A stretch of 64,000 bases of DNA from Candidatus Heimdallarchaeum aukensis (GTDB lineage Archaea > Asgardarchaeota > Heimdallarchaeia > Heimdallarchaeales > Heimdallarchaeaceae). The stretch is from NCBI GenBank assembly GCA_021513695.1, contig CP084166.1, positions 1,664,001-1,728,000 of the forward strand, in the 5' to 3' direction. Positions 5,849-48,789 of this stretch are shown here, one piece after another; positions within the stretch are counted from its first letter, which is position 1, and every line of letters begins with the position of its first letter. Below the pieces are notes generated by a model. That model did no database searches and was not told where the DNA came from. It saw only the letters and a program-made list of their open reading frames with translations. The translations under genes and the position numbers were made by a program.

Positions 5849-6790
5849 ATGTCTGATGATTACATCGTTCAAGTTAAGCATTTATCCCGTCGTTTTGGTT
5901 CTCGTATGGTTGTTTATAATCTTTCCATGAATATTCCCAAAGGTTACATTTATGGTTTATTAGGTCCCAATGGTGCTGGTAAAAGTACTACTATTAAGAC
6001 TTTAACTGGCCGCATTCGCCCTACTTCTGGTAATGTTCGTGTTTTTGGTTTAGACCCTTGGACACATCGTAAGCTAATTAATTTTCGTCTTGGTTATTTA
6101 CCTGAGAACCCTTCTTTTTATCAAGATATGAAAGTTTTATCCTTTACTCGTCTTATGGCTCGTCTTTACAACTTTTCTCGTTCTGAAGCTCTTTCTCGTG
6201 CGCGTATTGTTTTAGATTTACTGGGATTGGGGCGTTTTGAAGATTACCGAGTTGGTAATTTATCTCAAGGTCAAAAACAACGTCTAGGCTTTGCTTGTGC
6301 CATCCTTAACGAACCTGAATTCCTTATTTTGGATGAGCCTACAGCTAATCTTGACCCTGAAGGTCGTGTTTATGTTATGGAATTAATTTCTCGTTTACGA
6401 GATGAAGGTAAAACTATTCTCATCAGCAGTCACATTTTACCTGAGATTGAGCGTATGTGTGACCATATTGGTATTATTTCTAATGGTCATCTTTTGACTT
6501 CTCAAAAGACTACTCAATTGATCAAAGATGTTTATGATCTTGAGTACAAGATTGTTGTTTCCGACCCTGAAACTTTGGTTAAGGAGTTTTCTGGCTGGGA
6601 TTTTATAGCTAATTTTACTCTTGAAGATAACCTAATTATTGTTGAAATCAAAAATGATCGCCTTAATGACTTATGGAAGGCCGTTCCCAAATTTTGCTCT
6701 GAAAATAACATTGAACTTCGTACTATGTCCCCTGTTAAAGATCCTTTGGAAAAGGTTTTCTTATCATTAGTTCACACTGGAGGTGCTTAA
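5849..6790 (+). CDS. ABC transporter ATP-binding protein (ABC-2 type)
   Basis: Walker A GPNGAGKST, signature LSQGQKQR, Walker B ILDEPTANLD and the H-loop are all present. The ORF track starts at TTG 5828; ATG at 5849 (MSDDYIV) is the more plausible start. Confidence 0.85.
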   Translation: MSDDYIVQVKHLSRRFGSRMVVYNLSMNIPKGYIYGLLGPNGAGKSTTIKTLTGRIRPTSGNVRVFGLDPWTHRKLINFRLGYLPENPSFYQDMKVLSFTRLMARLYNFSRSEALSRARIVLDLLGLGRFEDYRVGNLSQGQKQRLGFACAILNEPEFLILDEPTANLDPEGRVYVMELISRLRDEGKTILISSHILPEIERMCDHIGIISNGHLLTSQKTTQLIKDVYDLEYKIVVSDPETLVKEFSGWDFIANFTLEDNLIIVEIKNDRLNDLWKAVPKFCSENNIELRTMSPVKDPLEKVFLSLVHTGGA

Positions 6791-6792
6791 TT

Positions 6793-7665
6793 TTGAATAA
6801 CAGTTTCGCGACAGTTTTCAACAGATTTGGTAATTTTTATCGCCGTTCTGGTTTATCTTTGAAATCTTTCATTATTTCAAAACATACTTTTAATCAGAAT
6901 CTTAAAAACAAGCGTTTTTACATTATTTTCTTTTACTTTTTACTTCCTGTTTTAGGTAGTATTTTCGACGTTTTAATTTCTGAACCTTCTTATTATTCTG
7001 GAAAAGCTTACGCTGTTTATCAAATTCATCAGTCTCTCAATAATACTTTACAAGTTTGGTGGATGTCCATTTTTGGTCAATTATTTATTATCCTTATTGC
7101 AAGTGACGCTATTTCTAGTGAGTTTGAGAAAGGGACCATCTTGTCTCTTAAATCTCGCCCTATTAGTGACATAGACATTTTTTTGGGTAAGTTTATTGGA
7201 ATTACTCTTCTTTCTTCTATATTGGTTATTCCTGGGGGATTTATTATTTATCTCACTCAAATTTGGACTTATTCTCCAAAGAATTTTTGGTGGGTGTTCT
7301 GGCACTCTCTTGACGAATTAATTGTCAGTCTGTTAGTTGTAATATTGGGTTTTATGTTACTTCTAAGCATCTGTTTTCTCTTCTCTTCAATATTCAACAA
7401 ATCTCTTCAAGCTACTTTAGTTTCTTTACTTGTTATCTTTGCTGTCCAGCTCCTATCCTCTGTCTTTTCTTTTTCTGATAATTTAATAAGTAAATTTAAC
7501 ATCACTCGCTATTTACAACATTTTCTCAACCCTGTTCTATACAATGTCAATACAATAACTACATCAGGATCCATTACAAACGAGCTTATAGGCTTTATTG
7601 CTTTAATAGTCATTTTACAGATTATTGGTTTTTGGATTTTTAGTAAAAAGGAGGTTCATCAATGA
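6793..7665 (+). CDS. ABC-2 family transporter permease
   Basis: Six hydrophobic helices. TTG start sits 2 nt after the ATPase stop. The ORF end overlaps the next gene by 4 nt, giving an operon arrangement. Confidence 0.6.
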   Translation: MNNSFATVFNRFGNFYRRSGLSLKSFIISKHTFNQNLKNKRFYIIFFYFLLPVLGSIFDVLISEPSYYSGKAYAVYQIHQSLNNTLQVWWMSIFGQLFIILIASDAISSEFEKGTILSLKSRPISDIDIFLGKFIGITLLSSILVIPGGFIIYLTQIWTYSPKNFWWVFWHSLDELIVSLLVVILGFMLLLSICFLFSSIFNKSLQATLVSLLVIFAVQLLSSVFSFSDNLISKFNITRYLQHFLNPVLYNVNTITTSGSITNELIGFIALIVILQIIGFWIFSKKEVHQ

Positions 7666-8726
7666 AATTTAGATCTATTTCTCGAATAATGTGTTTAACT
7701 CTCGTTCTTTTTATTTTTAGTTCATCTATTATCTTTGCTGCAGAAACTACAACAGAGCAAGGAGCTAAAACCAGACTAGAGTTGTTAAAAGAATTTGTTC
7801 AGGATAATTACTTAAACGACAGTTTTTCTAACGAACTCGGACAGAACTCCTCTGTTGAATCCACTTACTATGGTGTTTTATTGTCTGATTATTTGAAAAT
7901 TAGTTATGACGTTTACGACATTATTTTCTACATCCAGAAACATCAGAAAAGCAATTATGGTTTTTCTAACCAAGTGGATCAAGAAACAACCATTAATGCT
8001 ACCTTTTTTGCTGTTCAAACATTAAAACAATTAGGTATTGGTAGCGAAGATCTTAACCATTGGCAGATTTTTCAATATCTTAACGAAACCATTTCTGAGA
8101 TTCTTTATAACCCCTCGACCTATGTTAATTTAACCACACAAGATATTTATTCCATTTATCGTTTCTTTCTAACTAGCTCTATTTTGAATGAAACTGTACT
8201 ATTTCCTTATAATTCCTTACTTGCCGCTCTAAAGCACATACAGTTCACAAATGGTACTTTCCCAAGTTTCTATTACGCTATTGAAGTTGTTTACCTTCTT
8301 TCTCTTTTTGAACAGTCGCCTATCGATGTACAAGGAACAATTCGTTATCTCAAGTCATTTCGTTTTAATGATACTGGATTTGCAAAAGACTCCTCTGACG
8401 TCATTTCTATAAAAGATACTTACTACGCAATCTCTACGATTTCTATGTTAGGTGGAGAAATCGAAAATAAGAATAAGATTGTCGATGCTATTTTAGATCT
8501 GCAAGCTCCTGAGGGAGGTTTTATGGATAAAAAAGGTCATAAGCCTACTCTTGAGAGTTCTTATCTCGCTTACCAGATCCTTGTTTTAGTCAACAATATA
8601 AACAGTTTAAACCAGCTAGCCTTTTTAGAATCTACTGGTTTTCTGAATTTTAACTTTATAATAATAGGGAGCATAACTCTATTTTCGTTGTTTATAATCA
8701 GAAAAAAAAGAAATAAAAAAGTTTAA
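7662..8726 (+). CDS. secreted, C-terminally membrane-anchored protein with prenyltransferase/squalene-oxidase-like (alpha-alpha toroid) repeats
   Basis: N-terminal signal peptide MKFRSISRIMCLTLVLFIFSSSIIFA. About six repeats with YY(G/A)(V/I) and GGF-type motifs (STYYGVLL, TFFAVQTL, FYYAIEVV, DTYYAIST, QAPEGGFMDKKGH, SSYLAYQIL). C-terminal transmembrane helix plus RKKRNKK tail. The 4-nt start overlap couples it to the permease. Confidence 0.45.
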   Translation: MKFRSISRIMCLTLVLFIFSSSIIFAAETTTEQGAKTRLELLKEFVQDNYLNDSFSNELGQNSSVESTYYGVLLSDYLKISYDVYDIIFYIQKHQKSNYGFSNQVDQETTINATFFAVQTLKQLGIGSEDLNHWQIFQYLNETISEILYNPSTYVNLTTQDIYSIYRFFLTSSILNETVLFPYNSLLAALKHIQFTNGTFPSFYYAIEVVYLLSLFEQSPIDVQGTIRYLKSFRFNDTGFAKDSSDVISIKDTYYAISTISMLGGEIENKNKIVDAILDLQAPEGGFMDKKGHKPTLESSYLAYQILVLVNNINSLNQLAFLESTGFLNFNFIIIGSITLFSLFIIRKKRNKKV

Positions 8727-17844: not shown

Positions 17845-18171
17845 TTATTCTTTGGATTGTTTTTTAGCAAACTCACTTATTGGAAAAATTAGACCGAGTT
17901 CTATTAATAGAGTAAGCATCTTTTTGAAATTAACTACCTTGTAGGTTTTTTTAAGAGAAATTTGCTTTACCATTCTATTCTTAATCAGATAATTCAAACA
18001 TTTTTCTACTGATTCATGATTGATTCCTGTCACTTCAGCTAGTTCATCAAGTGTCATTCCTTCTTCATACATACTGAGTGAAACACCTACAACGCCTAAA
18101 TTTATTCTTTCCATTACTTCAGTTGGTAACATTTCAGAAAGATCTTTTTTTTCTTCAGTTTTTTCATCCAT
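17845..18171 (-). CDS. winged-helix DNA-binding protein (putative transcriptional regulator)
   Basis: The segment MTLDELAEVTGINHESVEKCLNYLIKNRMVKQ forms a helix-turn-helix recognition helix. Small 108-aa protein co-directional with the PRTase gene. Confidence 0.45.
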   Translation of the reverse strand: MDEKTEEKKDLSEMLPTEVMERINLGVVGVSLSMYEEGMTLDELAEVTGINHESVEKCLNYLIKNRMVKQISLKKTYKVVNFKKMLTLLIELGLIFPISEFAKKQSKE

Positions 18172-18183
18172 TTTAACTACACC

Positions 18184-18774
18184 TCACTTTTTAGTGAGAA
18201 CTTTTTCAAAATAGGATTCTACGAGATGAGGAGGAATGCCAATATCTTTCAACTGTTTTTTGATTTCAAGCACATTATGCTCTTCTTTTAATTCCTTGTA
18301 TTGGAAAGCTATAAATTCTCCATATTCCCAAGGATAAACTATCCATTTATCTGTTAAAGTAATGTAAAAATCTGGTACAATTACACTATGTTTTTTATAA
18401 TGTAGTGTCGCAGTTTTGATAGATTTTGGCTCTTTTGATTTTATGTGTTCCACTGCAGCCTGAAGACTTTTTCCTGAATCAGCTACGTCATCTACTATCA
18501 ATATTTTTTTATTTTTTACTTCAGCTGTTAGTTCTTGTGTTATAATTGGATTTTCTCTTACTTGTGAAGTATCTCGATAAAATTCTATTTTTATATTAGC
18601 GGTAAATTTATTTCCATAGAAATCAGAAAGCAATCGAGCTGGAATCCACCCACCACGAGCGATACCCACAATGATATCAGGAAATTCGTTAGCATTTATT
18701 AGTTTTTCAAACAAATAGTAACACATGTTGTATGCTTCATCCCAGCTTATTATTTCATACTGCAAAACTAGCAC
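18184..18774 (-). CDS. purine phosphoribosyltransferase (type I PRTase; hypoxanthine/guanine-xanthine PRT-like)
   Basis: PRPP-binding motif KKILIVDDVADSGKSL. Upstream loop IIVGIARGGWIPARLL is typical of archaeal HGPRT/Gpt-like enzymes. Confidence 0.7.
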   Translation of the reverse strand: MLVLQYEIISWDEAYNMCYYLFEKLINANEFPDIIVGIARGGWIPARLLSDFYGNKFTANIKIEFYRDTSQVRENPIITQELTAEVKNKKILIVDDVADSGKSLQAAVEHIKSKEPKSIKTATLHYKKHSVIVPDFYITLTDKWIVYPWEYGEFIAFQYKELKEEHNVLEIKKQLKDIGIPPHLVESYFEKVLTKK

Positions 18775-18831
18775 CTCAAGGATATATATCTGTTAAAGCT
18801 AATTTTTAAAAATATTGTTAAAGCTGCTACA

Positions 18832-19593
18832 GGTAGTGTCTAGTTTTCTTCCGACAAAATATTTGTGGGGACTCTAATAGTAAGATATGAAAACACAAAA
18901 ACTATCTACTCTTTTTAAGAGATGCAGAGTCCCCAAAAAAATAATAATAAAAGCGATTTATGAATATATTGGTTCAAAGAATGGTTTGAGGACAGTAGCA
19001 TGGAAGAATGGTTTAACGCATCAAACATTATGGTATTGGGTAAAGAAGTTCAGGCTCTTTAGGGAAAGTTTACATAGAGTTGTAGCAGAGAGAGGGGGAA
19101 TGCCAGAGATTATAGTAGTAGATGAAACAGAGATTAAGACCTCTCAAGGCTCAATGTATATGTGGTTCGCGTTAGATCCTTACAACAAGACTTTACTGGG
19201 TTTTAGTATTACTAAAGGACGGAGTAATCTTGAATGTTTACTAACTTTCCGTTATTGGCTCAAATGTTGGGGTTTTAAGCCCCGTATTGTCGTTACAGAT
19301 GCAGGAGTATGGTATCCTGTCTTACTTCGTCTCGGTATCAAAATCTCCGTTATCAAAGGTGGTTTACGCTCCTATATTGAACGTTTTAATGCTACTCTTA
19401 AGAGTTATCGTTGGTTTCATTCTATTCTCCACTGCACTTGTCCTATCCGTGCCGTCTATGGCTCTACTCATCTTTCTGGTTTTCTTACTCTCTTTATGCT
19501 CCATTATAATTTCGTTCGTCCTCATCAGAGCTTGGGACATCCTCCCCTTAGTTCCTTTTTACCTAGGAGGTGGTATAAAAACTAGACACTACC
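18832..19593 (+). mobile_element. compact insertion sequence (762 bp) with perfect 16-bp terminal inverted repeats and a 9-bp target-site duplication
   Basis: Left inverted repeat GGTAGTGTCTAGTTTT (18832..18847). Right inverted repeat AAAACTAGACACTACC (19578..19593) is the exact reverse complement. Both are flanked by the direct repeat GCTGCTACA (18823..18831 and 19594..19602). It encodes a single DDE transposase. Confidence 0.75.
18887..19585 (+). CDS. DDE transposase (rve/integrase-core type) with N-terminal HTH
   Basis: N-terminal HTH (GLTHQTLWYWVKKF). Catalytic D in VVDETEIK, D in VVTDAGVWY, E in ERFNATLK, plus the YNFVRPHQSLG motif typical of rve-core transposases (IS481/IS3-like). Confidence 0.7.
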   Translation: MKTQKLSTLFKRCRVPKKIIIKAIYEYIGSKNGLRTVAWKNGLTHQTLWYWVKKFRLFRESLHRVVAERGGMPEIIVVDETEIKTSQGSMYMWFALDPYNKTLLGFSITKGRSNLECLLTFRYWLKCWGFKPRIVVTDAGVWYPVLLRLGIKISVIKGGLRSYIERFNATLKSYRWFHSILHCTCPIRAVYGSTHLSGFLTLFMLHYNFVRPHQSLGHPPLSSFLPRRWYKN

Positions 19594-19661
19594 GCTGCTA
19601 CAACCCCTTAATATTATAAAAGTATCTTAGAAAAGTATTTAATACGTGAATCTTATCTTTA

Positions 19662-21947
19662 TTGAATAAACTTTTAGGTGATGATTTGTCATTCATAGAA
19701 CATTTGAATTTAACAGAAGATGAAAAAAAGATATATGCGTTTTTACTTAACTTTGGAAATTTGACAGCGATAGAACTAGCTAATTTTGCAGGAAAGAATT
19801 TTCAGACTGTAATAAATGCTTTAAACTCTTTAATTGAAAAAGGAGCAGTTGGTGAAACTAAAGGATATATCAAGAAGTATTTTGCTAGAATCCCATTATC
19901 ATATCTTGGAGAAAAGAGCTCAAATATTTCCAATCAAATCAACGAAAATCTTACTAAGGCCACTTCTTCTCTAACAAATGAAAAAGAAAAGCTCACAGAA
20001 CTTGCAACCAAAACAAAAACTGTGATTTCAGAAGAAATTGAGCGCAAGAAAAAAAGTTTAGATTCACAGATGAATACAAAAAAAGATGAAATACATTCCA
20101 ATATATCAGAAATTAAAGAAGAGGATTCAAACAAAATTGCAGAAATCCGATCTCAAATGGGAGAGGATATCAATTCTTTAAAGGATGAAATTACTTCAGA
20201 ACTTAGAGATAGTACGGGAAAAGCTTTAGAATCAATTTCTACTTCAAAAAAATCAATAGCGGATTCAAAAACAGAACTCATAACAAACTTAGAAAATAAT
20301 TCAGCAAAAATTATTGAGGAAACTGCAACTTCAGTCAAGACAAAAAGTGATGATATAAATAATGCAGTATCTAATCTTCAACCAAAATTAGAAGAATTGA
20401 AAGCTACCTATGTAAAAGAATTTGATGAAATTAGCAATATCACAAAAACAAACTTTGATCTAGCTAGATTAGATCTAAAGGAATTTAATGATAAACAAGC
20501 AACAAAAACTATTGATTATTCTCAAAACATAACAACAGAATTAGGTAAAACTCTAGACAATGCAACAGTGACAGTAAAAAGCCATTTAGATACGCTCAAT
20601 AATAACTTGGAAAATTTGTTAAATACCAAGACTGAGGAAATGGTACTGAAAATTAAAGAAACCTTAGCATCCTTGAGCAATGAAATCGAAGCAATAAAAG
20701 GTGATCTTGTAGCAGAGATGGTACAACAAAAAAGTGCTGTTTTAGCATCTACATTACTGAAAATAAAAGATGAGCTAGCCATCAAATTCACAGAGTTCTC
20801 AAACGAAGAACAACGAAGGAAACAGGAATTTATGAGTGAGAAAGATATTTTTTCACAAAAATTAGATGCCTATTATAATGAGACTATAGATGAATTTACC
20901 AAGAAAATTGAAGAAATAAAAACTAACGCTGAACAGAAAGTCAGCAGCATTAATTCAAAAGCTTTGGCTGAATTTACTTCACTCTCTGAACAGATAGTGT
21001 CGATCTTGTCTGAACACCAAGAAACTTTTAGTAAGAAAATAAACGACATTAAAAGCACAATTAGTGAAGAATTAGAAAAAAATGCTAATGTAAACAATGA
21101 AACGTTATCTAACATTGAGAATATGCTTAAAGCCATTATTGAAACCAACTCAACAAAAATAGAAGACTTATACGAAAAAACAAAAACAACTATAGAAACA
21201 CAAACAAAGATAATTCAGGAAGCAATTTTAAGCACAGTTGACAAAATAGTCAATGACACATTGGAAACAGCAAAAGCATTAGTTTCCATTTCAAAAGGCG
21301 AGATCGATAAAACAAAGAATTTCATCGAAGAGATGATAGAAAAGGAAATAGAAAACAGTTTTGGAATAATGGAAGAGACACATTCAAATCTCGAAAATCT
21401 AGCTAAAGAACTGATGAGTGTTTCTGTGAAGCTTGGTGAAGATTTTCAAACTTTAGAAGCAAAAACAACAGCAGTTAAAGAACCGGAAATAAATACAACT
21501 GCGATTATAGGTGTTGATGCAGTTGAAGAACACATAAAAGAGATATTGAAAAATGTACAAAGAAAGGGGACATTATTTGTACCAACAAAAAGGTCTGTTC
21601 CAGTAGAAGTCTTAAAAGCATTAAAAGGAACTGTGCAAATTACAGTAGTTACTAAAATTGACGAGGAGATGGACAAAGAGTGGATAAATGATTTGCTGAA
21701 TAATACACAAGCAAACATCATGATCAGAACAATACGAGAAGGAGGATTAGGTGGAGGAATGGGAACAGATATGCCTGTAATCTATGCTGTAGAGAGAGAC
21801 AGTTCTGAGGTGCTAGTAGCAATTGAAGATGAAACTACTAAAGAAGTAGTTGGGATACTATCAAACTCTACCGAATTTGCAAAAGTCCTATCATACACCA
21901 TACTTAGCAATTACTTAAGCGGAGCAGCTTCCAGACAAATAAGGTAA
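19662..21947 (+). CDS. TrmB-like winged-helix N-terminal domain fused to a coiled-coil region of about 600 aa and a C-terminal globular domain
   Basis: N-terminus LTEDEKKIYAFLLNFGNLTAIELANFAGKNFQTVINALNSLIEKGAV is a TrmB/MarR-type wHTH. Residues about 90-650 are E/K/T/S/N-rich heptad-like sequence. The C-terminal 130 aa are non-repetitive. TTG start. Confidence 0.5.
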   Translation: MNKLLGDDLSFIEHLNLTEDEKKIYAFLLNFGNLTAIELANFAGKNFQTVINALNSLIEKGAVGETKGYIKKYFARIPLSYLGEKSSNISNQINENLTKATSSLTNEKEKLTELATKTKTVISEEIERKKKSLDSQMNTKKDEIHSNISEIKEEDSNKIAEIRSQMGEDINSLKDEITSELRDSTGKALESISTSKKSIADSKTELITNLENNSAKIIEETATSVKTKSDDINNAVSNLQPKLEELKATYVKEFDEISNITKTNFDLARLDLKEFNDKQATKTIDYSQNITTELGKTLDNATVTVKSHLDTLNNNLENLLNTKTEEMVLKIKETLASLSNEIEAIKGDLVAEMVQQKSAVLASTLLKIKDELAIKFTEFSNEEQRRKQEFMSEKDIFSQKLDAYYNETIDEFTKKIEEIKTNAEQKVSSINSKALAEFTSLSEQIVSILSEHQETFSKKINDIKSTISEELEKNANVNNETLSNIENMLKAIIETNSTKIEDLYEKTKTTIETQTKIIQEAILSTVDKIVNDTLETAKALVSISKGEIDKTKNFIEEMIEKEIENSFGIMEETHSNLENLAKELMSVSVKLGEDFQTLEAKTTAVKEPEINTTAIIGVDAVEEHIKEILKNVQRKGTLFVPTKRSVPVEVLKALKGTVQITVVTKIDEEMDKEWINDLLNNTQANIMIRTIREGGLGGGMGTDMPVIYAVERDSSEVLVAIEDETTKEVVGILSNSTEFAKVLSYTILSNYLSGAASRQIR

Positions 21948-22076
21948 AAAACCCTTTTTTTTATTCTTTTTTCGCAAAAAATGCTAATTTCAAGGTATGA
22001 ATCACAGTTAGGTTTTTAGCGTAAAGATTATAAGCGAAAACAATTTTCCCTAGTTAACAACAAAGGTGAATAAAAA

Positions 22077-22253
22077 ATGCCAACAGTAGTAGATGAATCA
22101 TGTTGTGTAGGCTGTGGAGCTTGTGTAGATGTCTGCCCAGAGAACGTTTACGACCTTATAAATGACATTGCTGTTCCTGTTCGTAAAGAAGATTGCACAG
22201 ACTGCGGCCTATGTATTGACGAATGTCCTTCAGAATGTATTGATTTTGAATAA
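22077..22253 (+). CDS. 2x[4Fe-4S] ferredoxin (58 aa; below the ORF-track size cutoff)
   Basis: Translation is MPTVVDESCCVGCGACVDVCPENVYDLINDIAVPVRKEDCTDCGLCIDECPSECIDFE, with two CxxCxxCxxxCP clusters. GGTGA lies upstream. Confidence 0.65.
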   Translation: MPTVVDESCCVGCGACVDVCPENVYDLINDIAVPVRKEDCTDCGLCIDECPSECIDFE

Positions 22254-22336
22254 AGCAATATCTTTGCTTTTTCTTTTTGTTTTTAAATGCTATTTTCTAA
22301 ATTTTTAATTCGCACAGAAAAAAGAGATATTAAGTT

Positions 22337-22846
22337 TTAACCAAATTTTTTGTCACATCTCCCTCTATATTTACAATCCAAGCAAAATTCTCTTTCCCAA
22401 ATTCTTTGAAAAAAGTCTACTAACTTCCATATTTCCAAATAGTCCTCAATAATCACACCAATTTCCCAATTTCTTGCTGTGTCCTCAACTTTTCCCATTC
22501 CTGTTCCAGTCAAGTTTCCAGAGCCTACATATGCTTTTTTCCCATCAACAATAAACACCTTTCCATGGCTTCTTGGACAATGAAAAATTAGGGAGGGATC
22601 ATACTGTTCTATTTTCTTAACTAAAGTTGATTGTGTTGAATCCTTTCCGCTAATAATTCTTAAATCAATATCCTTACTCAATGCGATCAAAACTTCAGAG
22701 ATACGATATGTTTTTTTTGAAATAATTTGTACTCTAAAATCACTGGATACCCCTGTCATTATCCACAGACTTTCTTTTGCTTTAAACGCTACTTTACGTA
22801 AAAACTCGTCATAAATTTCTTTATTTACTATTACAGAGTTAGACAT
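22337..22846 (-). CDS. PLD-superfamily (single HKD motif) Nuc-like endonuclease / phosphodiesterase
   Basis: HGKVFIVDGKKAYVGSGNLT matches HxK(x4)D(x6)GSxN. The 169-aa single-HKD size fits Nuc/BfiI-type nucleases that dimerise. The C-terminal CLDCKYRGRCDKK may bind metal. Confidence 0.55.
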   Translation of the reverse strand: MSNSVIVNKEIYDEFLRKVAFKAKESLWIMTGVSSDFRVQIISKKTYRISEVLIALSKDIDLRIISGKDSTQSTLVKKIEQYDPSLIFHCPRSHGKVFIVDGKKAYVGSGNLTGTGMGKVEDTARNWEIGVIIEDYLEIWKLVDFFQRIWEREFCLDCKYRGRCDKKFG

Positions 22847-22947
22847 TAATTACCTCATTGGCTTTAGTTTTTTAAACTCTGCTAAAAAAAGTCTAGTTAT
22901 TAAATGTTTTATTAAACCTTAAATACTGAAACCACAGTTGTTGAATA

Positions 22948-25938
22948 ATGGAAAATATCGAAGCTGTGTGTATCAAAATTCTCTCTCAAAAGGGAGGAGA
23001 AAATCCCCTCACTTCATTATTAGTTGAAATAAACAAAATTCAATATGTTCTTAATCTTTGGACTCCTTGGAATGAAATTGGTGATTACATTCAACCTTAT
23101 ACCAAGATACGTGCTTTTAACGTTGACAAGATAAAAAATAGTGACTCGATCTACTATTCTGCCGGAAAAAAGGCCATAGTTGTCGTAGATCCAGATATTC
23201 TAATTAATGCGTCTACAATTGGAAATATTTCCTATTGCCCAAGAAGTTATTACATCAGTGAAAAAATGGGAGATACTCTTTCTCCTTTATCTGCAATTAA
23301 AGGAACAATTGTTCATGTAGCTTTGAGTACAGCTATCGCTTCTGGAAACTCTCCCACGGAAGTATTATCTGATGTTATTGATTACTATTCAATCCAATTC
23401 GAGCAACTAGGTTACTCTCGAGAAAATATTGAAACAGAAGTCTACAAAATGGTTGAAGCACTAGATCAATTTATTAAAACTCTTCCCACAGAAACAATTC
23501 CCGAGTCACTCTTTTTCTCACCTTACTTAGGAATCAGAGGAAGAATTGATGTACTTGCAGAGCGTATTTACGAACTTAAAACAGCTAAACTTGGTACAGA
23601 TGATGATGCACGATTTTCAGATATGATGCAAGTAACTCTTTATTCTTTTGGTTTAACAGATATGAAGGAAAGTATAGCACAAACAGATGGAACTGTTTTA
23701 TATGTAGGTTCAGAAACTCTTCAACCAAAAGAAGTAAACATTAGTTGGGGAATCTTAAGATATGCTATTCAAATGCGTAATATTGCCTATAGAATCTCTT
23801 TTTTAGATTATATTCCTCCTATTCTTGGCGAAAACCAATCCAGAAAATGCAGTAAATGTTCAGTTCAAGTTATGTGTAGCCTTTTTTGCGCAGGGTTAAA
23901 TCAATTTAGGAATTGTGAAATATGTAATCATTCTCATTTTTGCAGTAAAACAGTTTTATCTGAAAAAGAGCAAGAATATTTCAATAAATATAGTTACTTG
24001 TTGTCTCAGGAAAGGCTAGAAACAAACCGCAATTTAGCTGATTTGTGGAATCTTTCTCTAGAAGAGAGAGTAGAAAAAGGAAAAACTATAGTTAACTTAG
24101 TATTAAAAAATGAAATTTTAGAAAATGGAATAAGGACATTAGTTTTTTCTTGTAACAATCAGTCAGAGATAAGAGAAGGAGATGTTATCATCTTAAGTGA
24201 CGGGGAAGTAATTTCCAATCCAATTAGTACAGGAACTGTGACTAACATTACATCAACATCTATAGAAATAGAAACAAAAGCTCATCCTGAAAAAGTTTCT
24301 GTAATTGATTTGTATTCTATTGATGTGGGATTTAATCGTCAACAAAGAGGATTATTCAACTTTATTTTTAAATCTAATAATTTTAAAGATATAATCTTGG
24401 GGCATAAACCTCCTGTTATAAAAAAAGTCAAAGGAAATTTTGTACCTAACAATTCTTCTCAAAATGAAGCTATCCAAAAGATTCTTGGTACTGAAAATTA
24501 CTTATTGATTCAAGGCCCTGCAGGAACAGGAAAAACACATGTAATTGCCAAATCTGCAATTTTACTCGCTGATAAAAAAGAGAAGGTGCTTTTAACAGCT
24601 TATACAAATCGAGCTGTTGACAACATGTGTAAATATCTATTAGAAAATGGTTATCAAAATTTTGTTAGGTTAGGCTCTACGCATGCCACACAGAGAAAAA
24701 TAAGAAAATACACTTTGTTTTCAATATTGAAGAAAAATAAAAATAAAAAAGTACTCGATCTTCTTGACGAATATCAAATAATTGTTGCCACAACATCCAC
24801 TATTTCTTCACCAGTTTATTCTAATCTTGGAATACAAACAGTAATCGTTGATGAAGCAAGCCAGATGACTGAAACAACTCTGCTTTCTGCTTTAATAGAA
24901 GGTAAGAAATTTATTCTTGTTGGAGACCACAAGCAATTGCCCCCTGTTATTCAAAGTGTGCTGTGTAAAAACGAGGGGTTTGATATTTCATTATTTGAGA
25001 AATTGGCCAAATCTAATCCCCAATTTGTTCATTTACTAACAATCCAATTTAGAATGAATGAGAAAATAATGGAATTTTCAAACAAAAAGTTTTATGAGAA
25101 CAAACTAGAATGTTTTGATAACCTAATTGCACTCCAAAACTTATATGACTTAGGAAATTTCGCAGGAGATTTTCAGCAATTTGAAAATAAGGCTATCTAT
25201 GACCCAAAAATGCCTTTAGTATACGTTCAAGTAAATGGAAAATTCAATCCTGAAAAAAAACTGAATGCTATGGAAGCTGAAATTGTTGCTACAATAGCTA
25301 AAAACTTTTTGAGATTAGGAATAAGCACTGAACAAATTGGAGTTATTGCACCTTATCGAGGGCAAGTAGGTGAAATAAGAAGATATATACCAGGTGTTTC
25401 GGTCGATACTGTAGATAGGTTTCAAGGTTCTGACCGAGAGATTATAATTCTCTCATTAACAGAAACAAATATTCACGGTTTTAAGGGATTTTCAGATGAA
25501 AGAAGACTCAATGTTGCTATTACGCGGGCTAAAAAGAAACTGGTAGTAGTTGGAAACCCAAATCTTACTGAGGGAGAGTTAGGAGAGTACATTAGTTATC
25601 TAAGAGATAATGTAGAAAATGTTCAAGTTAAAGAGATAGAAGAAAGAGAGGAATTGATAGAAAAACAAATAAGAACGGTCATAGTTGCTGATTCCATATC
25701 AAAAGTTGCTTCATTTTTCAAAAAAGTTAAGGCAAAAGGAAAAGAATTATACAAATCAAAAGAAGAAATAAACAAATGTCCAATTTGTTTCCAACAAGTT
25801 TATGAGAATGCTATTCAATGTCCAATTTGTGAAAAACTTTATCATTACACTCACTTAATCCAATGGATTAAAGAAAAAGGAAGATGCCCTTACTGCAAAA
25901 CATCTTTATCTATATATTCTGTCTATGCAGAAGAGTAA
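22948..25938 (+). CDS. Cas4/Dna2-like PD-(D/E)xK nuclease (Fe-S cluster) fused to an SF1B Upf1/Dna2-like helicase, with a C-terminal RING/PHD-like zinc finger
   Basis: N-terminal nuclease carries RecB motifs: GRIDVL (motif II), YELKTAK (E-x-K) and QVTLY (QxxxY). A Cas4/Dna2-type 4-Cys set is present: YCPRSY plus CSKCSVQVMCSLFC. Helicase motifs include Walker A GPAGTGKTHV, motif II VIVDEASQ, VGDHKQLPP, DRFQGSDREIIILS and motif VI NVAITRAKKKLVVVG. The C-terminus reads CPIC-x10-CPIC-x4-H-x2-H-x12-CPYC. Confidence 0.7.
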   Translation: MENIEAVCIKILSQKGGENPLTSLLVEINKIQYVLNLWTPWNEIGDYIQPYTKIRAFNVDKIKNSDSIYYSAGKKAIVVVDPDILINASTIGNISYCPRSYYISEKMGDTLSPLSAIKGTIVHVALSTAIASGNSPTEVLSDVIDYYSIQFEQLGYSRENIETEVYKMVEALDQFIKTLPTETIPESLFFSPYLGIRGRIDVLAERIYELKTAKLGTDDDARFSDMMQVTLYSFGLTDMKESIAQTDGTVLYVGSETLQPKEVNISWGILRYAIQMRNIAYRISFLDYIPPILGENQSRKCSKCSVQVMCSLFCAGLNQFRNCEICNHSHFCSKTVLSEKEQEYFNKYSYLLSQERLETNRNLADLWNLSLEERVEKGKTIVNLVLKNEILENGIRTLVFSCNNQSEIREGDVIILSDGEVISNPISTGTVTNITSTSIEIETKAHPEKVSVIDLYSIDVGFNRQQRGLFNFIFKSNNFKDIILGHKPPVIKKVKGNFVPNNSSQNEAIQKILGTENYLLIQGPAGTGKTHVIAKSAILLADKKEKVLLTAYTNRAVDNMCKYLLENGYQNFVRLGSTHATQRKIRKYTLFSILKKNKNKKVLDLLDEYQIIVATTSTISSPVYSNLGIQTVIVDEASQMTETTLLSALIEGKKFILVGDHKQLPPVIQSVLCKNEGFDISLFEKLAKSNPQFVHLLTIQFRMNEKIMEFSNKKFYENKLECFDNLIALQNLYDLGNFAGDFQQFENKAIYDPKMPLVYVQVNGKFNPEKKLNAMEAEIVATIAKNFLRLGISTEQIGVIAPYRGQVGEIRRYIPGVSVDTVDRFQGSDREIIILSLTETNIHGFKGFSDERRLNVAITRAKKKLVVVGNPNLTEGELGEYISYLRDNVENVQVKEIEEREELIEKQIRTVIVADSISKVASFFKKVKAKGKELYKSKEEINKCPICFQQVYENAIQCPICEKLYHYTHLIQWIKEKGRCPYCKTSLSIYSVYAEE

Positions 25939-25953
25939 GGCGAAAAAATATAA

Positions 25954-27480
25954 CTAATTAAAAAACTCATCTAGCGATGGTTGTTGCTTTTTATTCTTTT
26001 TTTGTTTCTTCTGCATCTCTTTCACTTTGGATTCCTTACTTTTTTGAGCTGTGGATTCAGTGTTTTTTTCTTTTTTCTTTTTCTTACTTTTTTTAACATT
26101 CAGTTCTTCAGTTTCTTCATCTCGCTTTTCTTCTTCAAAGTGTGAAATTAAAGGTGTTACTTTTGAAGGAGGAGACGAGAGAGTTACTTCTTTTGCAAAA
26201 TCAACATACAATTCATCCATATATTCCAGAATTAACTTTGTTTGTTTAGCATTTTTTTCAGTTAAATAATCGATCTCATCTGCTTCAAGATTCAACCAAG
26301 TAGCTATTCCTGCAGCCATTTTTGCATCATTTTTAAAAATGGATCTCATGTATGGATAAATGTCTTGTTTAAATTGAGAAGAAGAGCAGTGAAATTTTGA
26401 TTTGCTTTTTTTAATGATTGACGTGAGCTTAGCTTCTTTCATTCTTAATCTGCCAATTTTCGCCCAGTAGGAGGGAAAAGTATATCTGACTTGCTTATAG
26501 GGCGAAGTTTTCATTAATCCTACACTAGAAATAAATACAAAAAAATATTTCAGAAAAATCCAATTTTGAGTTAAATATGCTTGAGATAAATAGAAGTCTG
26601 CTTCCGCTATAAGTGAATACATATTATCTAATTCTTTTGGACTTTTAGCTTGCTTATAGCTGTGCTCGTCTACGTAATTTAACAACTCTCTGTAATCTAC
26701 ATCTAAGCCCTCAATAGCTTTTCTTGCTGATTCTAAGCTTTTTGCGTAATAAATTTTTGATAATGCTTGATTTAGTTTTTGTTCTTGATTTCTTTGGGAA
26801 AATTCAAATTTTACATCAACCGATAATGAATCTTTAAGAGCAATACTTTCTAAATCATTCAAAGCTGAACGTGCATCACCTGAGCTGTTTTTTGCGATGT
26901 CCAATAAAACTTCATCATCAATTGTAAGATTCTCTTTTTTAACAATACGCCTTAGTAACTCAATTATTTCATCAATTGTTAAATGATGAAATTCAACAAT
27001 TTTCATGTGCCTTTTTACAGAACTTAACGATTTAGCTTCAACATCATTAGCTGTGGCAATGATGGGAATTTGAGTTCCCTTAATTGCTTTTTCTAAAGCT
27101 TTTCCTCCTCCTCTATCTTGATTTCCAAATAATCCATCAGCTTCATCAACAATGATCATTTTTCTAACTGTTCCACCTTGCAAAACTGTTCCTTCAGTGG
27201 AAGCCTTACCAACAAGTAATTCAACAGCTTTTTTATTTCTTTTATCACTTGCATTGACTTCAATATACTCATAATTATATTTTCTAGCTAAATATAAGGC
27301 TACGCTTGTTTTTCCTACTCCAGCAGGACCAACTAATAAAATAACTTTTTTCTTTTCTTGATTCCAATTTCGTAGCCATCTTTCAATTTCTTTTACTACA
27401 AGCTTATTTCCAACAAAATCATCAAGTACTTTGGGTCTATATTTCTCCACAAATGGTAAATTAAGAGATTCGGAACTCAT
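25954..27480 (-). CDS. rfcL: replication factor C large subunit
   Basis: EKYRPKVLDDFVGN, Walker A GPAGVGKTS and Walker B IIVDEADG are present. There is a long Lys-rich C-terminal tail ending in the PIP-box QPSLDEFF. Start taken at MSSESLN (27480) rather than the upstream track start. Confidence 0.8.
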   Translation of the reverse strand: MSSESLNLPFVEKYRPKVLDDFVGNKLVVKEIERWLRNWNQEKKKVILLVGPAGVGKTSVALYLARKYNYEYIEVNASDKRNKKAVELLVGKASTEGTVLQGGTVRKMIIVDEADGLFGNQDRGGGKALEKAIKGTQIPIIATANDVEAKSLSSVKRHMKIVEFHHLTIDEIIELLRRIVKKENLTIDDEVLLDIAKNSSGDARSALNDLESIALKDSLSVDVKFEFSQRNQEQKLNQALSKIYYAKSLESARKAIEGLDVDYRELLNYVDEHSYKQAKSPKELDNMYSLIAEADFYLSQAYLTQNWIFLKYFFVFISSVGLMKTSPYKQVRYTFPSYWAKIGRLRMKEAKLTSIIKKSKSKFHCSSSQFKQDIYPYMRSIFKNDAKMAAGIATWLNLEADEIDYLTEKNAKQTKLILEYMDELYVDFAKEVTLSSPPSKVTPLISHFEEEKRDEETEELNVKKSKKKKKEKNTESTAQKSKESKVKEMQKKQKKNKKQQPSLDEFFN

Positions 27481-27538
27481 AAGGCAAAATAGAATAAAAG
27501 TTTTAACTATAAAAAATATTCTCAAGAAGAGAATGGAG

Positions 27539-39407: not shown

Positions 39408-40073
39408 TTATGAAGAAACTTTTTGTGATTCTAAAAGATATAATCTTTTCTTTAATGAATGATACTTTTTAGCAAATTCTAGGCTAGAGACTTCATAATC
39501 CTCAAACTGTTGTTCAAGTGCAAATAATTCATTCTCAACTTTTAATATTTCATCCTCAAGTAGTTTTGATTTCTCTTGAGCAATAACATTTTCAGAAACA
39601 CTGCTTCTCTCTTTTCGCTCGATCTCTGCTAATTCCCTCTTTTTCTGTTCTAATATTCGAACTAATTGAGATTTTTGATTATTTAACATCGCAATTTCTG
39701 ATGTTGGATCTTCCCATGTAGTTTCAGCATATGAAACCATTTTTGCTCTTACTCTTTGAAACAGACGCTTTACTTCTGCAATTACTTGAAAAATATGATA
39801 AGTTGGCCTCCACCGAGCTAACATTCTCATAGAAAGGATTCCATCTTCGACATTTGGATGTTCCATGGGAGTATTGACATAGATAGTTGGAGGAACATTT
39901 GGAAAATCATTAGGAATAACAATTTCTATTTCAGCATTTTTGGTGCCATTATAGGTTTGAACTGGAACAAAACCTTTCCATATTCTTAAATTGCCATCTT
40001 TAGGTTCAAAACCATAAGCTCTTTCATAAATAAATTGGGCCTCTCGACTTAGAATTTCATCGGAAATGGTCAT
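39408..40073 (-). CDS. UEV (inactive ubiquitin-E2 variant) domain + coiled-coil protein, TSG101/Vps23 (ESCRT-I)-like
   Basis: N-terminal about 120 aa, IEIVIPNDFPNVPPTIYVNTPMEHPNVEDGILSMRMLARWRP, has the E2/UEV beta-hairpin-PP-HPN-x3-G layout. Ser/Met stand where the catalytic Cys would be, so it is non-catalytic. The C-terminal 100 aa are continuous heptad coiled coil. Confidence 0.55.
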   Translation of the reverse strand: MTISDEILSREAQFIYERAYGFEPKDGNLRIWKGFVPVQTYNGTKNAEIEIVIPNDFPNVPPTIYVNTPMEHPNVEDGILSMRMLARWRPTYHIFQVIAEVKRLFQRVRAKMVSYAETTWEDPTSEIAMLNNQKSQLVRILEQKKRELAEIERKERSSVSENVIAQEKSKLLEDEILKVENELFALEQQFEDYEVSSLEFAKKYHSLKKRLYLLESQKVSS

Positions 40074-47764: not shown

Positions 47765-47977
47765 TTAACGTATAAAAATACTTAATATTGTCGTAATTAT
47801 CAACACTGTTACCCCAGCAACCACTAACCAAAACACTATATCAAACAGATAAATCATTTTTGGAACTTTTACTTTTTCCCATTTCCTTACTACAGTTTTG
47901 TTTAAATTCTTTTCTGAGCTCATTTTTCCACCTTTCTCCTTATTATCTATACCTTTCCTATTCCACTTTTCTCCCAT
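47765..47977 (-). CDS. small single-pass membrane protein
   Basis: K-rich N-terminus then one TM helix (IYLFDIVFWLVVAGVTVLIITTILSIF). Overlaps the 5' end of the next ORF unless it starts at the internal Met. Confidence 0.25.
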   Translation of the reverse strand: MGEKWNRKGIDNKEKGGKMSSEKNLNKTVVRKWEKVKVPKMIYLFDIVFWLVVAGVTVLIITTILSIFIR

Positions 47978-48465
47978 TTCTGAAATTGTTCAAGTAAGTT
48001 TTCTATTTCCCCGGATACACCTTTTTTGTCTACGAAAACAGTTTTTCCTTTAATTCGTATATTGTCTGTTGGTAAATCTAGCAAAAACTTCTGCAATGCT
48101 AGTTCATCAGTAAATCCTAACAGTTCAGCCATTGTCTCTATTTCTATTTCTTCATATTTCATTAATATTTGTTCAAATTTTGCTTTTCTTTCTTCCTCTG
48201 TTAATTCCTTAATTATTTTTTCTCCTTTCTTCTTTATTTTGACAAATCTGTCTTCTTTTAGCTCGCCCTCTATTTTTCTTTTTTCTATTAGTGATTGAAT
48301 TATAGCTCTTACTTCATCTTCTTCTATACCTGTGATTTCAGTTATTTTATTTACTTCTCTAACCATTTCAAGTTGAGTTAAAATTGTTTGTTCTTTTATT
48401 TGTCTCTGTATTTTTGGAATTTTCTTTTTTATATAATATCTTGAAAATGGACCTATGATTTTCAT
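47947..48465 (-). CDS. small protein with two predicted winged-helix modules
   Basis: Segments TQLEMVREVNKITEITGIEEDEVRAIIQSLIEKRKIEG and ETMAELLGFTDELALQKFLLDLPTDNIRIKGKTVFV each look like wHTH units. The linker is charged and helical. Confidence 0.35.
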   Translation of the reverse strand: MKIIGPFSRYYIKKKIPKIQRQIKEQTILTQLEMVREVNKITEITGIEEDEVRAIIQSLIEKRKIEGELKEDRFVKIKKKGEKIIKELTEEERKAKFEQILMKYEEIEIETMAELLGFTDELALQKFLLDLPTDNIRIKGKTVFVDKKGVSGEIENLLEQFQKWEKSGIGKV

Positions 48466-48664: not shown

Positions 48665-48789
48665 ATTAATTAGTTCTTTTCGCTTTTTGCAGCAGTTTAC
48701 ATTTCTTTTTTCGTAATTGTAACTTGTTAATTGAACATTCTCTTTTAAAAAAGCAATATTTAATTAATTATTCAGTATTTTTTTCTTTA

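Follow-up and report, generated by a model that had tools for sequence, protein, structure and literature searches.

A predicted Dna2 nuclease-helicase carrying a conserved C-terminal RING-H2-like finger in Candidatus Heimdallarchaeum aukensis and other Heimdallarchaeia

The subject of this analysis is a gene encoding a protein of 996 amino acids (aa) in a stretch of 64,000 nucleotides, here called the window, from contig CP084166.1 of Candidatus Heimdallarchaeum aukensis. Judged by its sequence and a predicted structure, this gene probably represents a vertically inherited chromosomal Dna2 nuclease-helicase with a complete architecture, to which a conserved C-terminal RING-H2-like finger is joined by a variable linker. 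An earlier note on this DNA, made from the letters alone, had offered two readings of the locus: a true Dna2 of archaea with an acquired module of RING/PHD type, or a nuclease-helicase resembling Nhi or Dna2 that acts with a neighbouring phospholipase D (PLD)-family nuclease as a defence module. The former is supported by profile, motif, structural and distribution evidence, while the latter is unsupported in view of the housekeeping synteny of the locus, the narrow spread of the PLD gene and the weakness of the matches to defence models. The four genes described in that note, encoding a ferredoxin, the PLD protein, the 996-aa protein and the replication factor C large subunit (RfcL), all lie where it had placed them.

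The assignment to Dna2 follows from both profile and structural comparisons. The hidden Markov model (HMM) searches that had been proposed for the locus returned the Pfam families Fer4, PLDc_2, Dna2, PDDEXK_1, AAA_11, AAA_12 and zf-RING_2. Within the 996-aa protein, the Dna2 profile (PF08696) covers residues 59-179 with 49.1 bits against a cut-off of 22.4 (E-value 7e-13), the helicase profiles AAA_11 and AAA_12 match at 7.5e-37 and 4.7e-47, and PDDEXK_1 is matched too. The closest solved structure by sequence is that of mouse DNA2 (5eaw, 3.7e-60), to the helicase of which the corresponding part of the protein aligns at 200 bits. A full-length AlphaFold (AF2) model, with a predicted local distance difference test score (pLDDT) of 86.4 and a predicted template modelling score of 0.87, has mouse Dna2 chain 5ean_A as its top Foldseek match (E-value 5.5e-53, template modelling (TM) scores of 0.72/0.69, 1027 columns). 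The mouse Dna2 entries 5ean, 5eax and 5eaw rank far above all other matches, including Ighmbp2, Upf1 and Sen1, which cover the helicase half only. In addition to the domains listed in Table 1, the model shows a long helix after the nuclease and two RecA-like helicase domains.

The residues expected of such an enzyme are also in place. The earlier note had held that its Dna2 reading would fail if the N-terminal domain lacked the catalytic residues of RecB nucleases; all of these (D201, E209, K211, Q228 and Y232) are present. Two alignments, one of 21 sequences and one of 43, show them to be invariant, and the same applies to the cysteines C97, C301, C304 and C310 and to all helicase motifs. The motifs quoted in that note (YCPRSY, GRIDVL, ELK, QVTLY, CSKCSVQVMC, GPAGTGKT, DEASQ, QGSDRE and TRAKKKL) are likewise found, and are conserved in 21 to 43 orthologs. 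The catalytic residues of the nuclease and its Fe-S cysteines extend to halobacterial and bacterial relatives. In the alignment with mouse DNA2, C301, C304 and C310 fall on its C-x2-C-x5-C motif, and a four-cysteine staple (C ... C-x2-C-x5-C), predicted to hold an Fe-S cluster, spans the nuclease. Directly past it lies a second motif of four cysteines, C314-x8-C323-x2-C326-x5-C332, which is kept in a second Heimdall clade and in Sericytochromatia homologs, and is not seen in Hodarchaeota-type or halobacterial proteins or in the aligned region of mouse DNA2. It may be a second Fe-S site or a zinc site.

The C-terminal finger had been described as a cross-brace-like zinc finger with the pattern CPIC-x10-CPIC-x4-H-x2-H-x12-CPYC. 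The finger and its cross-brace character stand; the last spacer is of ten residues rather than twelve, giving C944-x2-C947-x10-C958-x2-C961-x4-H966-x2-H969-x10-C980-x2-C983. Across the class the pattern is C-x2-C-x9-12-C-x2-C-x4-H-x2-H-x10-C-x2-C, which is present in 60 distinct tails and invariant in an alignment of 19 diverse ones (28-62% identity), every one of which keeps 8/8 ligands. The RING half of the original 'RING/PHD-like' label is upheld. The zf-RING_2 profile matches 19/19 tails (best 3e-9) and zf-rbx1 15/19; the tail from the window, searched alone, reaches 31.5 bits and so passes the cut-off of 27.3, and in the scan of the full-length protein the match, over residues 942-984, stays below it at 24.5. 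A profile of the tails, run against the sequences of the PDB, retrieves RING-H2 E3 ligases, namely Arkadia (2.3e-10), RNF165, gp78, HRD1, RLIM, RNF38 and EL5. The structure prediction of the finger for which the earlier note had called gave a RING fold: the AF2 model of the tail (pLDDT 84.5) has strands at 21-23 and 30-32 and a helix at 33-43, which is the beta-beta-alpha topology of RING domains, and Foldseek aligns it to RING and U-box E3 domains, including those of TRIM37, RNF165, gp78, TRAF6, HRD1 and Rad18, with TM scores of 0.6-0.72 and a root mean square deviation (rmsd) of 1.2-1.5 A. The PHD half of the label is not sustained, as the ligand pattern is C4H2C2 and not C4HC3, PHD profiles match 4/19 tails with E-values of 0.0023 or worse, and PHD structures appear in the PDB profile search at E-values of about 0.005-0.01 only.

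Residues of the kind through which RING domains contact E2 enzymes are present in the finger as I946, W973 and P981, with K984 as a linchpin-type residue. In the 60 tails, I, L, V or F precedes the second cysteine in 60/60, the tryptophan is found in 56/60, a proline follows the seventh ligand in 55/60 and a lysine or arginine follows the eighth in 50/60. In the alignment to Arkadia, ligands 3 and 5 fall on C961 and H966, and ligand 6 on H969, where histidine replaces the usual cysteine. The position of the canonical fourth ligand, a histidine, is variable (H in 16/60 tails), and the alignments suggest that its role is presumably taken over by the invariant C958 of the CPxC knuckle.

The degree of conservation differs considerably along the C-terminal part of the protein. 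Mean column identity in the linker is 0.49 within the family and 0.32 within the class, as against 0.72-0.76 and 0.51-0.59 in the catalytic domains, while the RING, at 0.74 and 0.57, is level with the latter. The sole conserved stretch of the linker, at aa 905-925 (25660-25720, plus strand), reads IVAD-SISKVASFF, with the consensus IVAExISKTAKxxKKV. The motif S-I-S-K-V-A-S-F-F within it was considered as a PCNA-interacting protein (PIP) box, a reading that was dropped because the aromatic pair varies among orthologs.

The distribution of the fusion was studied in a locus scan taking one genome per species, which returned 80 loci. Approximately 25 orthologs of 977-1037 aa, with 53-58% identity, come from Heimdallarchaeaceae and from metagenome-assembled genomes (MAGs) labelled Heimdallarchaeota; the protein of H. 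endolithica is 93% identical, and about 28 family members fall at 53-58%. In remoter records named Heimdallarchaeota or Hodarchaeota the identity is 32-34% and the match still reaches residue 989, while for the Dna2 of halobacteria and for certain bacterial homologs, those of Sericytochromatia among them, it is 26-33% and the match ends at about residue 870-877. All Dna2 relatives from records bearing the names Heimdallarchaeota, Kariarchaeaceae or Hodarchaeota have the finger, which was not found in the halobacterial, bathyarchaeal or bacterial Dna2 relatives retrieved. A search of 1.84 billion cluster representatives identified, besides the cluster of the query, 16 clusters at 50% identity in which a Dna2-like protein of about 1000 aa has the strict motif at its C-terminus. 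The source names of the RING-bearing members are mostly Heimdallarchaeota, Kariarchaeaceae and Hodarchaeota; two loci are titled Thorarchaeota, and the C-terminal tail of one of these (L058) is near-identical to that from a locus titled Heimdallarchaeota.

A neighbour-joining tree of 857 columns, which is rough, with deep branches unresolved and most sequences unnamed, places the RING-bearing sequences in one group, to which the halobacterial, Sericytochromatia and long sequences do not belong; a bathyarchaeotal protein of 843 aa that has no RING falls near them. The finger does not vary among the records that bear the names Heimdallarchaeota, Kariarchaeaceae and Hodarchaeota. It is therefore no accident of a single genome, and on these sequence comparisons the RING fusion is a conserved trait of the class Heimdallarchaeia. 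The earlier note had foreseen that orthologs might lack both the finger and the PLD neighbour, which would make the arrangement a lineage-specific accident. This holds for the PLD gene, which is lacking in most lineages, and not for the finger, which is kept. No account of a Dna2-RING fusion was found in the searchable literature; searches on Dna2 in Asgard archaea or Heimdallarchaeota, and on archaeal Dna2, returned nothing relevant, a Haloferax review leaves Dna2 unmentioned, and none was found on an Asgard RING ubiquitin ligase in Heimdallarchaea.

Table 1. Features of the Dna2 locus and of the predicted 996-aa protein (positions are those of the window)
Feature	Position	Strand	Basis
Ferredoxin, 2x[4Fe-4S], 58 aa	22077-22253	+	Pfam Fer4 families, 5e-13
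PLD-family phosphodiesterase, single HKD, 169 aa	22337-22846	-	PLDc_2 9.5e-11
Divergent PLD/Dna2 intergenic region, 101 bp	22847-22947		Read from sequence
Dna2-RING gene, 996 aa	22948-25938	+	Pfam Dna2, PDDEXK_1, AAA_11, AAA_12, zf-RING_2
N-terminal beta-rich domain, like an oligonucleotide/oligosaccharide-binding (OB) fold, aa 1-80	22948-23187	+	Six strands, AF2 pLDDT ~90; Foldseek alignment over near the whole model length
RecB/PD-(D/E)xK nuclease, aa 85-335	23200-23952	+	Catalytic D201, E209, K211, Q228, Y232; Fe-S C97, C301, C304, C310
Second Cys4 motif, C314-x8-C323-x2-C326-x5-C332	23887-23943	+	Invariant in 43 Heimdall sequences
Beta-barrel (1B/stalk-like), aa 380-455	24085-24312	+	AF2 secondary structure; global superposition on Dna2
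Superfamily 1B (SF1B) helicase core, aa 500-872 (GPAGTGKT, DEASQ, QGSDRE, TRAKKKL)	24445-25563	+	AAA_11, AAA_12; motifs invariant
Variable linker, aa 873-941	25564-25770	+	Low column identity; pLDDT dips at 897-905 and 929-937
RING-H2-like finger, aa 942-985	25771-25902	+	Predicted ligands C944, C947, C958, C961, H966, H969, C980, C983
RfcL (replication factor C large subunit)	25954-27525	-	NCBIfam PRK04195, 2e-96, above cut-off

It is tentatively proposed that the Dna2 of Heimdallarchaeia is itself a ubiquitin E3 ligase, the RING of which would pass ubiquitin either to the enzyme itself or to proteins located at 5' flaps, at stalled forks or at resected ends. As suggested by the mouse Dna2 structures and by general Dna2 biology, a free 5' end of single-stranded DNA (ssDNA) would thread through the tunnel of the nuclease domain and be cut, with the SF1B motor tracking 5'-3' behind the nuclease, and long flaps, stalled or reversed forks or resected ends would be processed in this manner. 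The flexible RING tail may then recruit a charged E2~ubiquitin to the DNA-bound Dna2, a step suggested by the E2-contact and linchpin-type residues and by the existence of Asgard cascades. Dna2 would in that case also be an E3 ligase, modifying either itself, for turnover or release, or a co-bound protein, for example an ssDNA-binding protein or a clamp; the substrate of any such ubiquitylation is pure speculation. Ubiquitin-related machinery does exist in this genome, as the window contains, at 39408-40073 on the minus strand, a gene for a 221-aa protein with the fold of E2 enzymes and ubiquitin E2 variants (UEV), followed by a coiled coil (UQ_con 2.1e-11, UEV 1.1e-6). It has an HPN motif and a serine at the position of the E2 catalytic cysteine, and resembles the Asgard UEV-Vps23 (ESCRT-I) protein of an earlier study (bioRxiv 10.1101/2023.07.25.550441).

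It is also conceivable, if doubtful, that the finger is a structural module, or one that binds protein or DNA, with a RING fold and no E3 activity, serving for instance in docking to the replisome or in dimerisation. Many RING-fold domains are not ligases, and several observations would suit such a module. The same observations, with some others, weigh against the proposal of a Dna2 with a working RING ligase. The finger is a C4H2C2 variant that does not follow the canonical C3HC4 or C3H2C3 ligand order, its fourth ligand being a cysteine displaced by a short insertion and its sixth a histidine. Tails of the Hodarchaeota type have valine for the E2-contact proline and glutamine for the linchpin lysine, hence not every member may be competent as an E3. 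In none of the 8 context types examined was a gene for E1, E2 or ubiquitin found beside Dna2, so that the locus is not linked to genes of the ubiquitin system. The nuclease, helicase and E3 activities are all predictions from sequence and model; the view of paralogs is limited to 64 kb of the genome, and a second, RING-less Dna2 elsewhere is possible; and the rough tree leaves the relation to eukaryotic Dna2 unresolved. Against a purely structural role, 83-100% of the 60 tails keep the linchpin and each of the three positions classically in contact with E2, and active RING-H2 ligases are the best profile matches. Furthermore, a functional Asgard cascade of E1, E2 and RING E3 has been reconstituted and was active in vitro (bioRxiv 10.1101/2023.07.25.550441).

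The PLD gene and Dna2 are transcribed divergently, and the distance between their starts, put at about 100 bp in the earlier note, measures 101 bp. The PLDc_2 profile scores 42.1 bits against a cut-off of 27, and all six residues of the motif H94-x-K96-x4-D101-x6-G108-S109-x-N111 are invariant in 5 orthologs. Four further residues, the cysteines C90, C155, C158 and C164, are invariant as well; they follow the pattern CPRxHxK ... C-x2-C-x5-C, with the spacing of the Cas4/Dna2 staple. As each chain has one HKD motif, a homodimer would be expected to form the active site, and the protein is probably a nuclease that acts as a dimer and has a metal site of four cysteines. Its family is small, with 3 clusters among 5.8 billion proteins and a 48% identical homolog in L015.

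The earlier note had raised the conservation of the PLD gene beside Dna2 orthologs as a point to be checked. The gene is present in only 5 of the approximately 30 family lineages sampled; these five are closely related, and in them it always occupies the slot between the ferredoxin and Dna2, divergent from Dna2. In about 10 family loci this slot has no gene and the gap is about 113 bp. In eight others (L010, L012, L013, L014, L022, L023, L026 and L027) it holds an unrelated conserved gene of 157-162 aa (MADDVFIIDSSGIPYYSRCFGGETCK...), for example on the minus strand at 7371-7847 of L010, which gives a weak Fuz/MON1-type longin signal (E-value 0.002, below the cut-off). The identity of the PLD orthologs (48-93%) tracks that of the accompanying Dna2 proteins (55-93%), in agreement with a single insertion that was then inherited vertically. 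Going by these comparisons, the PLD gene entered the slot in one Heimdallarchaeaceae subclade and is a lineage-specific neighbour; a functional link between it and Dna2 is possible, though the data do not require one.

Two alternatives would give the PLD gene a larger part. It might be a true accessory partner of Dna2 in the Heimdallarchaeum subclade, a second nuclease sharing a divergent promoter and acting on the same DNA intermediates. This seems unlikely. The constant slot and orientation in all five PLD-bearing lineages would accord with such a partnership, but one insertion with vertical inheritance predicts a fixed position equally well; and although the family is very narrow and its cysteine pattern recalls the Dna2/Cas4 staple, the slot is elsewhere empty or filled by the longin-like gene, and no co-occurrence was seen outside the Heimdallarchaeum subclade in the loci of other Heimdall clades that were examined. 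The other alternative, that the nuclease-helicase and the PLD protein make up a two-gene module against mobile elements, comparable to Mokosh type I (the helicase MkoA with the PLD protein MkoB) or to Nhi, appears very improbable. The divergent arrangement, with its short distance between starts, would suit it, as would the PADLOC match to MkoA (2.4e-67) and weak PLD matches to MkoB (3.7e-5) and DrmC (3e-11). However, the MkoA match is confined to residues 605-880, the generic Upf1-like core, the NCBIfam score for DrmC is 24.7 against a cut-off of 133, that for PLuB is 263 against 999, and MkoB gives 21 bits with a model of 610 positions for a PLD protein of 169 aa; no Nhi model is among the best 25 PADLOC matches. 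The surroundings of the nearest plasmid homolog of the PLD protein, from Segatella hominis (29% identity, same cysteine pattern; L089 6974-7507), are also in favour of a defensive role, as its neighbours are WYL, AAA ATPase, PD-(D/E)xK and S8 peptidase genes and look like a defence island; hence the wider PLD family may have roots in conflict systems. At the Heimdall locus itself, most family members, like every other Heimdall clade, have Dna2 without the PLD gene, the gene order is that of a syntenic housekeeping locus kept over 50-60% protein identity, the PLD and Dna2 identities change in step as vertical descent predicts, and a search for phage homologs of the PLD protein found none. The defence reading is therefore unsupported, given the housekeeping synteny, the presence of the PLD gene in 5 of about 30 lineages and model matches that are partial or below cut-off.

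Other candidate identities drawn from defence and CRISPR collections were also rejected. The PADLOC and NCBIfam matches to MkoA, PLuB, ProA, Hhe, DrmC and MkoB are to generic domains or far below cut-off, and nothing relevant on PLuB was found in the literature. For DISARM, in addition to the low DrmC score (24.7 vs 133), the neighbours DrmA, DrmB, DrmE and a methyltransferase (MTase) are not present at the locus. Cas4 and Cas4d models reach only 26-28 bits and cas4g_cas1g 20.5 against 560; no cas genes were found among the open reading frames (ORFs) scanned, and CRISPR repeats were not searched for.

The genes around Dna2 have a stable order in the Heimdallarchaeaceae. An AP endonuclease (APendo), a membrane protein and RfcL are followed by a block of a helix-turn-helix (HTH) gene, a phosphoribosyltransferase (PRTase), a TrmB-coiled-coil protein, the ferredoxin, the slot and Dna2, and then by a substrate-binding protein (SBP) and an ABC transporter; the order RfcL, PRTase, TrmB-coiled-coil, ferredoxin, Dna2 and ABC transporter is kept in approximately 25 genomes at 53-58% Dna2 identity. 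Comparison with L009, L015, L018, L020, L021, L027, L081 and L083 indicates that in Heimdallarchaeum (the window and L001, which is H. endolithica) a block of about 8 kb, running from the HTH gene to Dna2 and including the PLD gene (window 17845-25938), is inverted relative to all other family loci. The RfcL side and the ABC-transporter side thereby change places: in the window RfcL is convergent with Dna2 and lies 15 bp past its stop, and in the other family loci it lies 4-5 kb upstream of Dna2. The earlier note had taken the RfcL neighbour as support for a replicative role. The convergent adjacency is real, but because it is specific to Heimdallarchaeum and was made by the inversion, it is weak functional evidence. 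RfcL itself probably starts at Met16, position 27480.

With a single exception, the Heimdallarchaeaceae loci that have a usable upstream flank carry the ferredoxin, at 76-100% identity, directly upstream of Dna2; in L018 it is inverted. It was not found near Dna2 in the more distant Heimdall clades, where the neighbours are unrelated metabolic and repair genes. As a partner of Dna2 it was thus set aside, the adjacency being limited to one family and the gene being inverted in L018, and its position is taken as synteny. Both the ferredoxin and RfcL are syntenic neighbours rather than demonstrated partners. In one Heimdallarchaeota MAG (L005), where the ferredoxin was not detected, a 400-aa TnpB/IS200-605-like ORF lies directly upstream of Dna2 (6681-7883, minus strand), in the place that the ferredoxin takes in the other loci.

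Further observations concern the remainder of the window. The TrmB-coiled-coil protein (19662-21947, plus strand; 761 aa) has an N-terminal TrmB-type HTH, a coiled coil of about 600 residues and a C-terminal globular part; it matches the Apolipoprotein profile below cut-off and, at about 32% identity, lies upstream of the ferredoxin in nearly all family loci. Between it and the PRTase is a 232-aa fragment of an rve-type integrase core (18887-19585, plus strand; rve_3 1.8e-5, below cut-off), which is probably a genome-specific insertion sequence (IS) remnant, as it is absent from H. endolithica and from all other loci. Exosome-like, Pcc1, Fpg, RNase P p30 and M28 peptidase genes are found elsewhere in the window, with others that resemble tRNA synthetases and translation factors, judged by their opening residues. 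A 548-aa WD40 beta-propeller protein (48724-50370, plus strand) and a 172-aa protein with a weak PCI-domain match (47947-48465, minus strand) belong to eukaryote-like domain types typical of Asgard genomes. The neighbourhood of Dna2 is housekeeping, with no defence island. The GC content of the region (0.315-0.328) is the same as that of the remainder of the window, thus showing no anomaly. In the 101-bp intergenic region, inspected by eye, A/T-rich TATA-like boxes precede the start of PLD and that of Dna2 by about 25-30 nt, and the PLD ATG is preceded by GAGGT.

The interest of the fusion lies chiefly in its bearing on ubiquitin. Dna2 is a core enzyme of eukaryotic replication and repair, and at the eukaryotic fork ubiquitin signalling is run by separate RING ligases; the Heimdallarchaeia are generally regarded as the archaeal class closest to eukaryotes. 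The Dna2-RING protein is a concrete, clonable candidate for testing the link of Asgard ubiquitylation to DNA metabolism, and would add a substrate-targeted E3 to the archaeal RING ligases characterised so far, which are few; on these, the literature searches found only the UEV-Vps23 study and a paper on the cascade cited in it. The protein also bears on how ubiquitin signalling was tied to DNA metabolism before eukaryotes. If it is a ligase, the replication and repair of DNA would have come under ubiquitin control before eukaryotes arose, and this control would afterwards have been divided among separate eukaryotic E3s, Rad18 and Rad5 for example, and the second Cys4 site and the Cys4-bearing PLD protein may be further metal- or redox-sensing parts. 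The pairing with the PLD gene, like the presence of the ferredoxin and RfcL beside Dna2, concerns local gene order and is of low general interest.

Compared with known systems, the protein has the order and fold of mouse DNA2 (5ean/5eaw/5eax), with the OB-like domain, the RecB nuclease and its four-cysteine staple, the beta-barrel and the SF1B helicase. Halobacterial Dna2 is 28-32% identical over residues ~9-877, and the Dna2 of Pyrococcus horikoshii is a further archaeal comparator. The linker and RING (aa 873-996) are absent from the aligned mouse DNA2 chains and from halobacterial, bathyarchaeal and bacterial relatives, and the extra cysteines C314, C323, C326 and C332 are absent from the aligned mouse region and from halobacterial and Hodarchaeota-type Dna2. 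Yeast Dna2 has a long disordered N-terminal extension, which the Heimdall protein lacks. At the level of domains, the PLD protein resembles the small single-HKD nucleases Nuc (Salmonella, 1byr), NgoFVII-type enzymes and DrmC in its size class (~155-170 aa) and in a single HxKx4Dx6GSxN motif, although its matches to them are weak (Nuc E-value 0.18, RE_NgoFVII, DrmC). It differs from Nuc in the four invariant cysteines that suggest a metal site; to our knowledge no cysteine metal site of this kind has been described for Nuc. The likeness of the locus to Mokosh is that of an Upf1-like SF1 helicase beside a PLD-family gene, and its likeness to Nhi that of a nuclease-helicase fusion. Unlike Mokosh, only the helicase core matches MkoA, and the locus is vertically inherited, with a PLD gene that is dispensable in most lineages.

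The finger itself has the fold of the RING-H2 E3s Arkadia/RNF111, RNF165, gp78/AMFR, HRD1 and EL5 (rmsd 1.2-1.5 A, profile E-values of 2e-10 to 1e-7), and shares with them the eight cross-brace ligands, the Ile-type, Trp and Pro contacts and the Lys/Arg linchpin. It differs from them in its C4H2C2 ligands, with a CPxC knuckle in place of C3-x-H4 and histidine for Cys6, and in being fused to a DNA nuclease-helicase, and its ligase activity is a prediction. Eukaryotes likewise have proteins that combine a nucleic-acid motor with a RING-type module, among them Rad5, HLTF and SHPRH, ZNFX1, and Upf1 with its CH domain. ZNFX1 and Upf1 belong to the same SF1B helicase family and are found as helicase-core matches in the sequence and fold searches, and ZNFX1 has been reported to be an E3 ligase (bioRxiv 10.1101/2025.10.14.682297). 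By contrast, the motors of Rad5 and HLTF are of the SNF2 type, the position and type of the zinc module differ, and a RecB nuclease is found in none of Rad5/HLTF/SHPRH, ZNFX1 or Upf1. As far as these comparisons go, the resemblance of the Heimdall protein to the eukaryotic motor-RING proteins is one of functional analogy only, with no sign of common descent.

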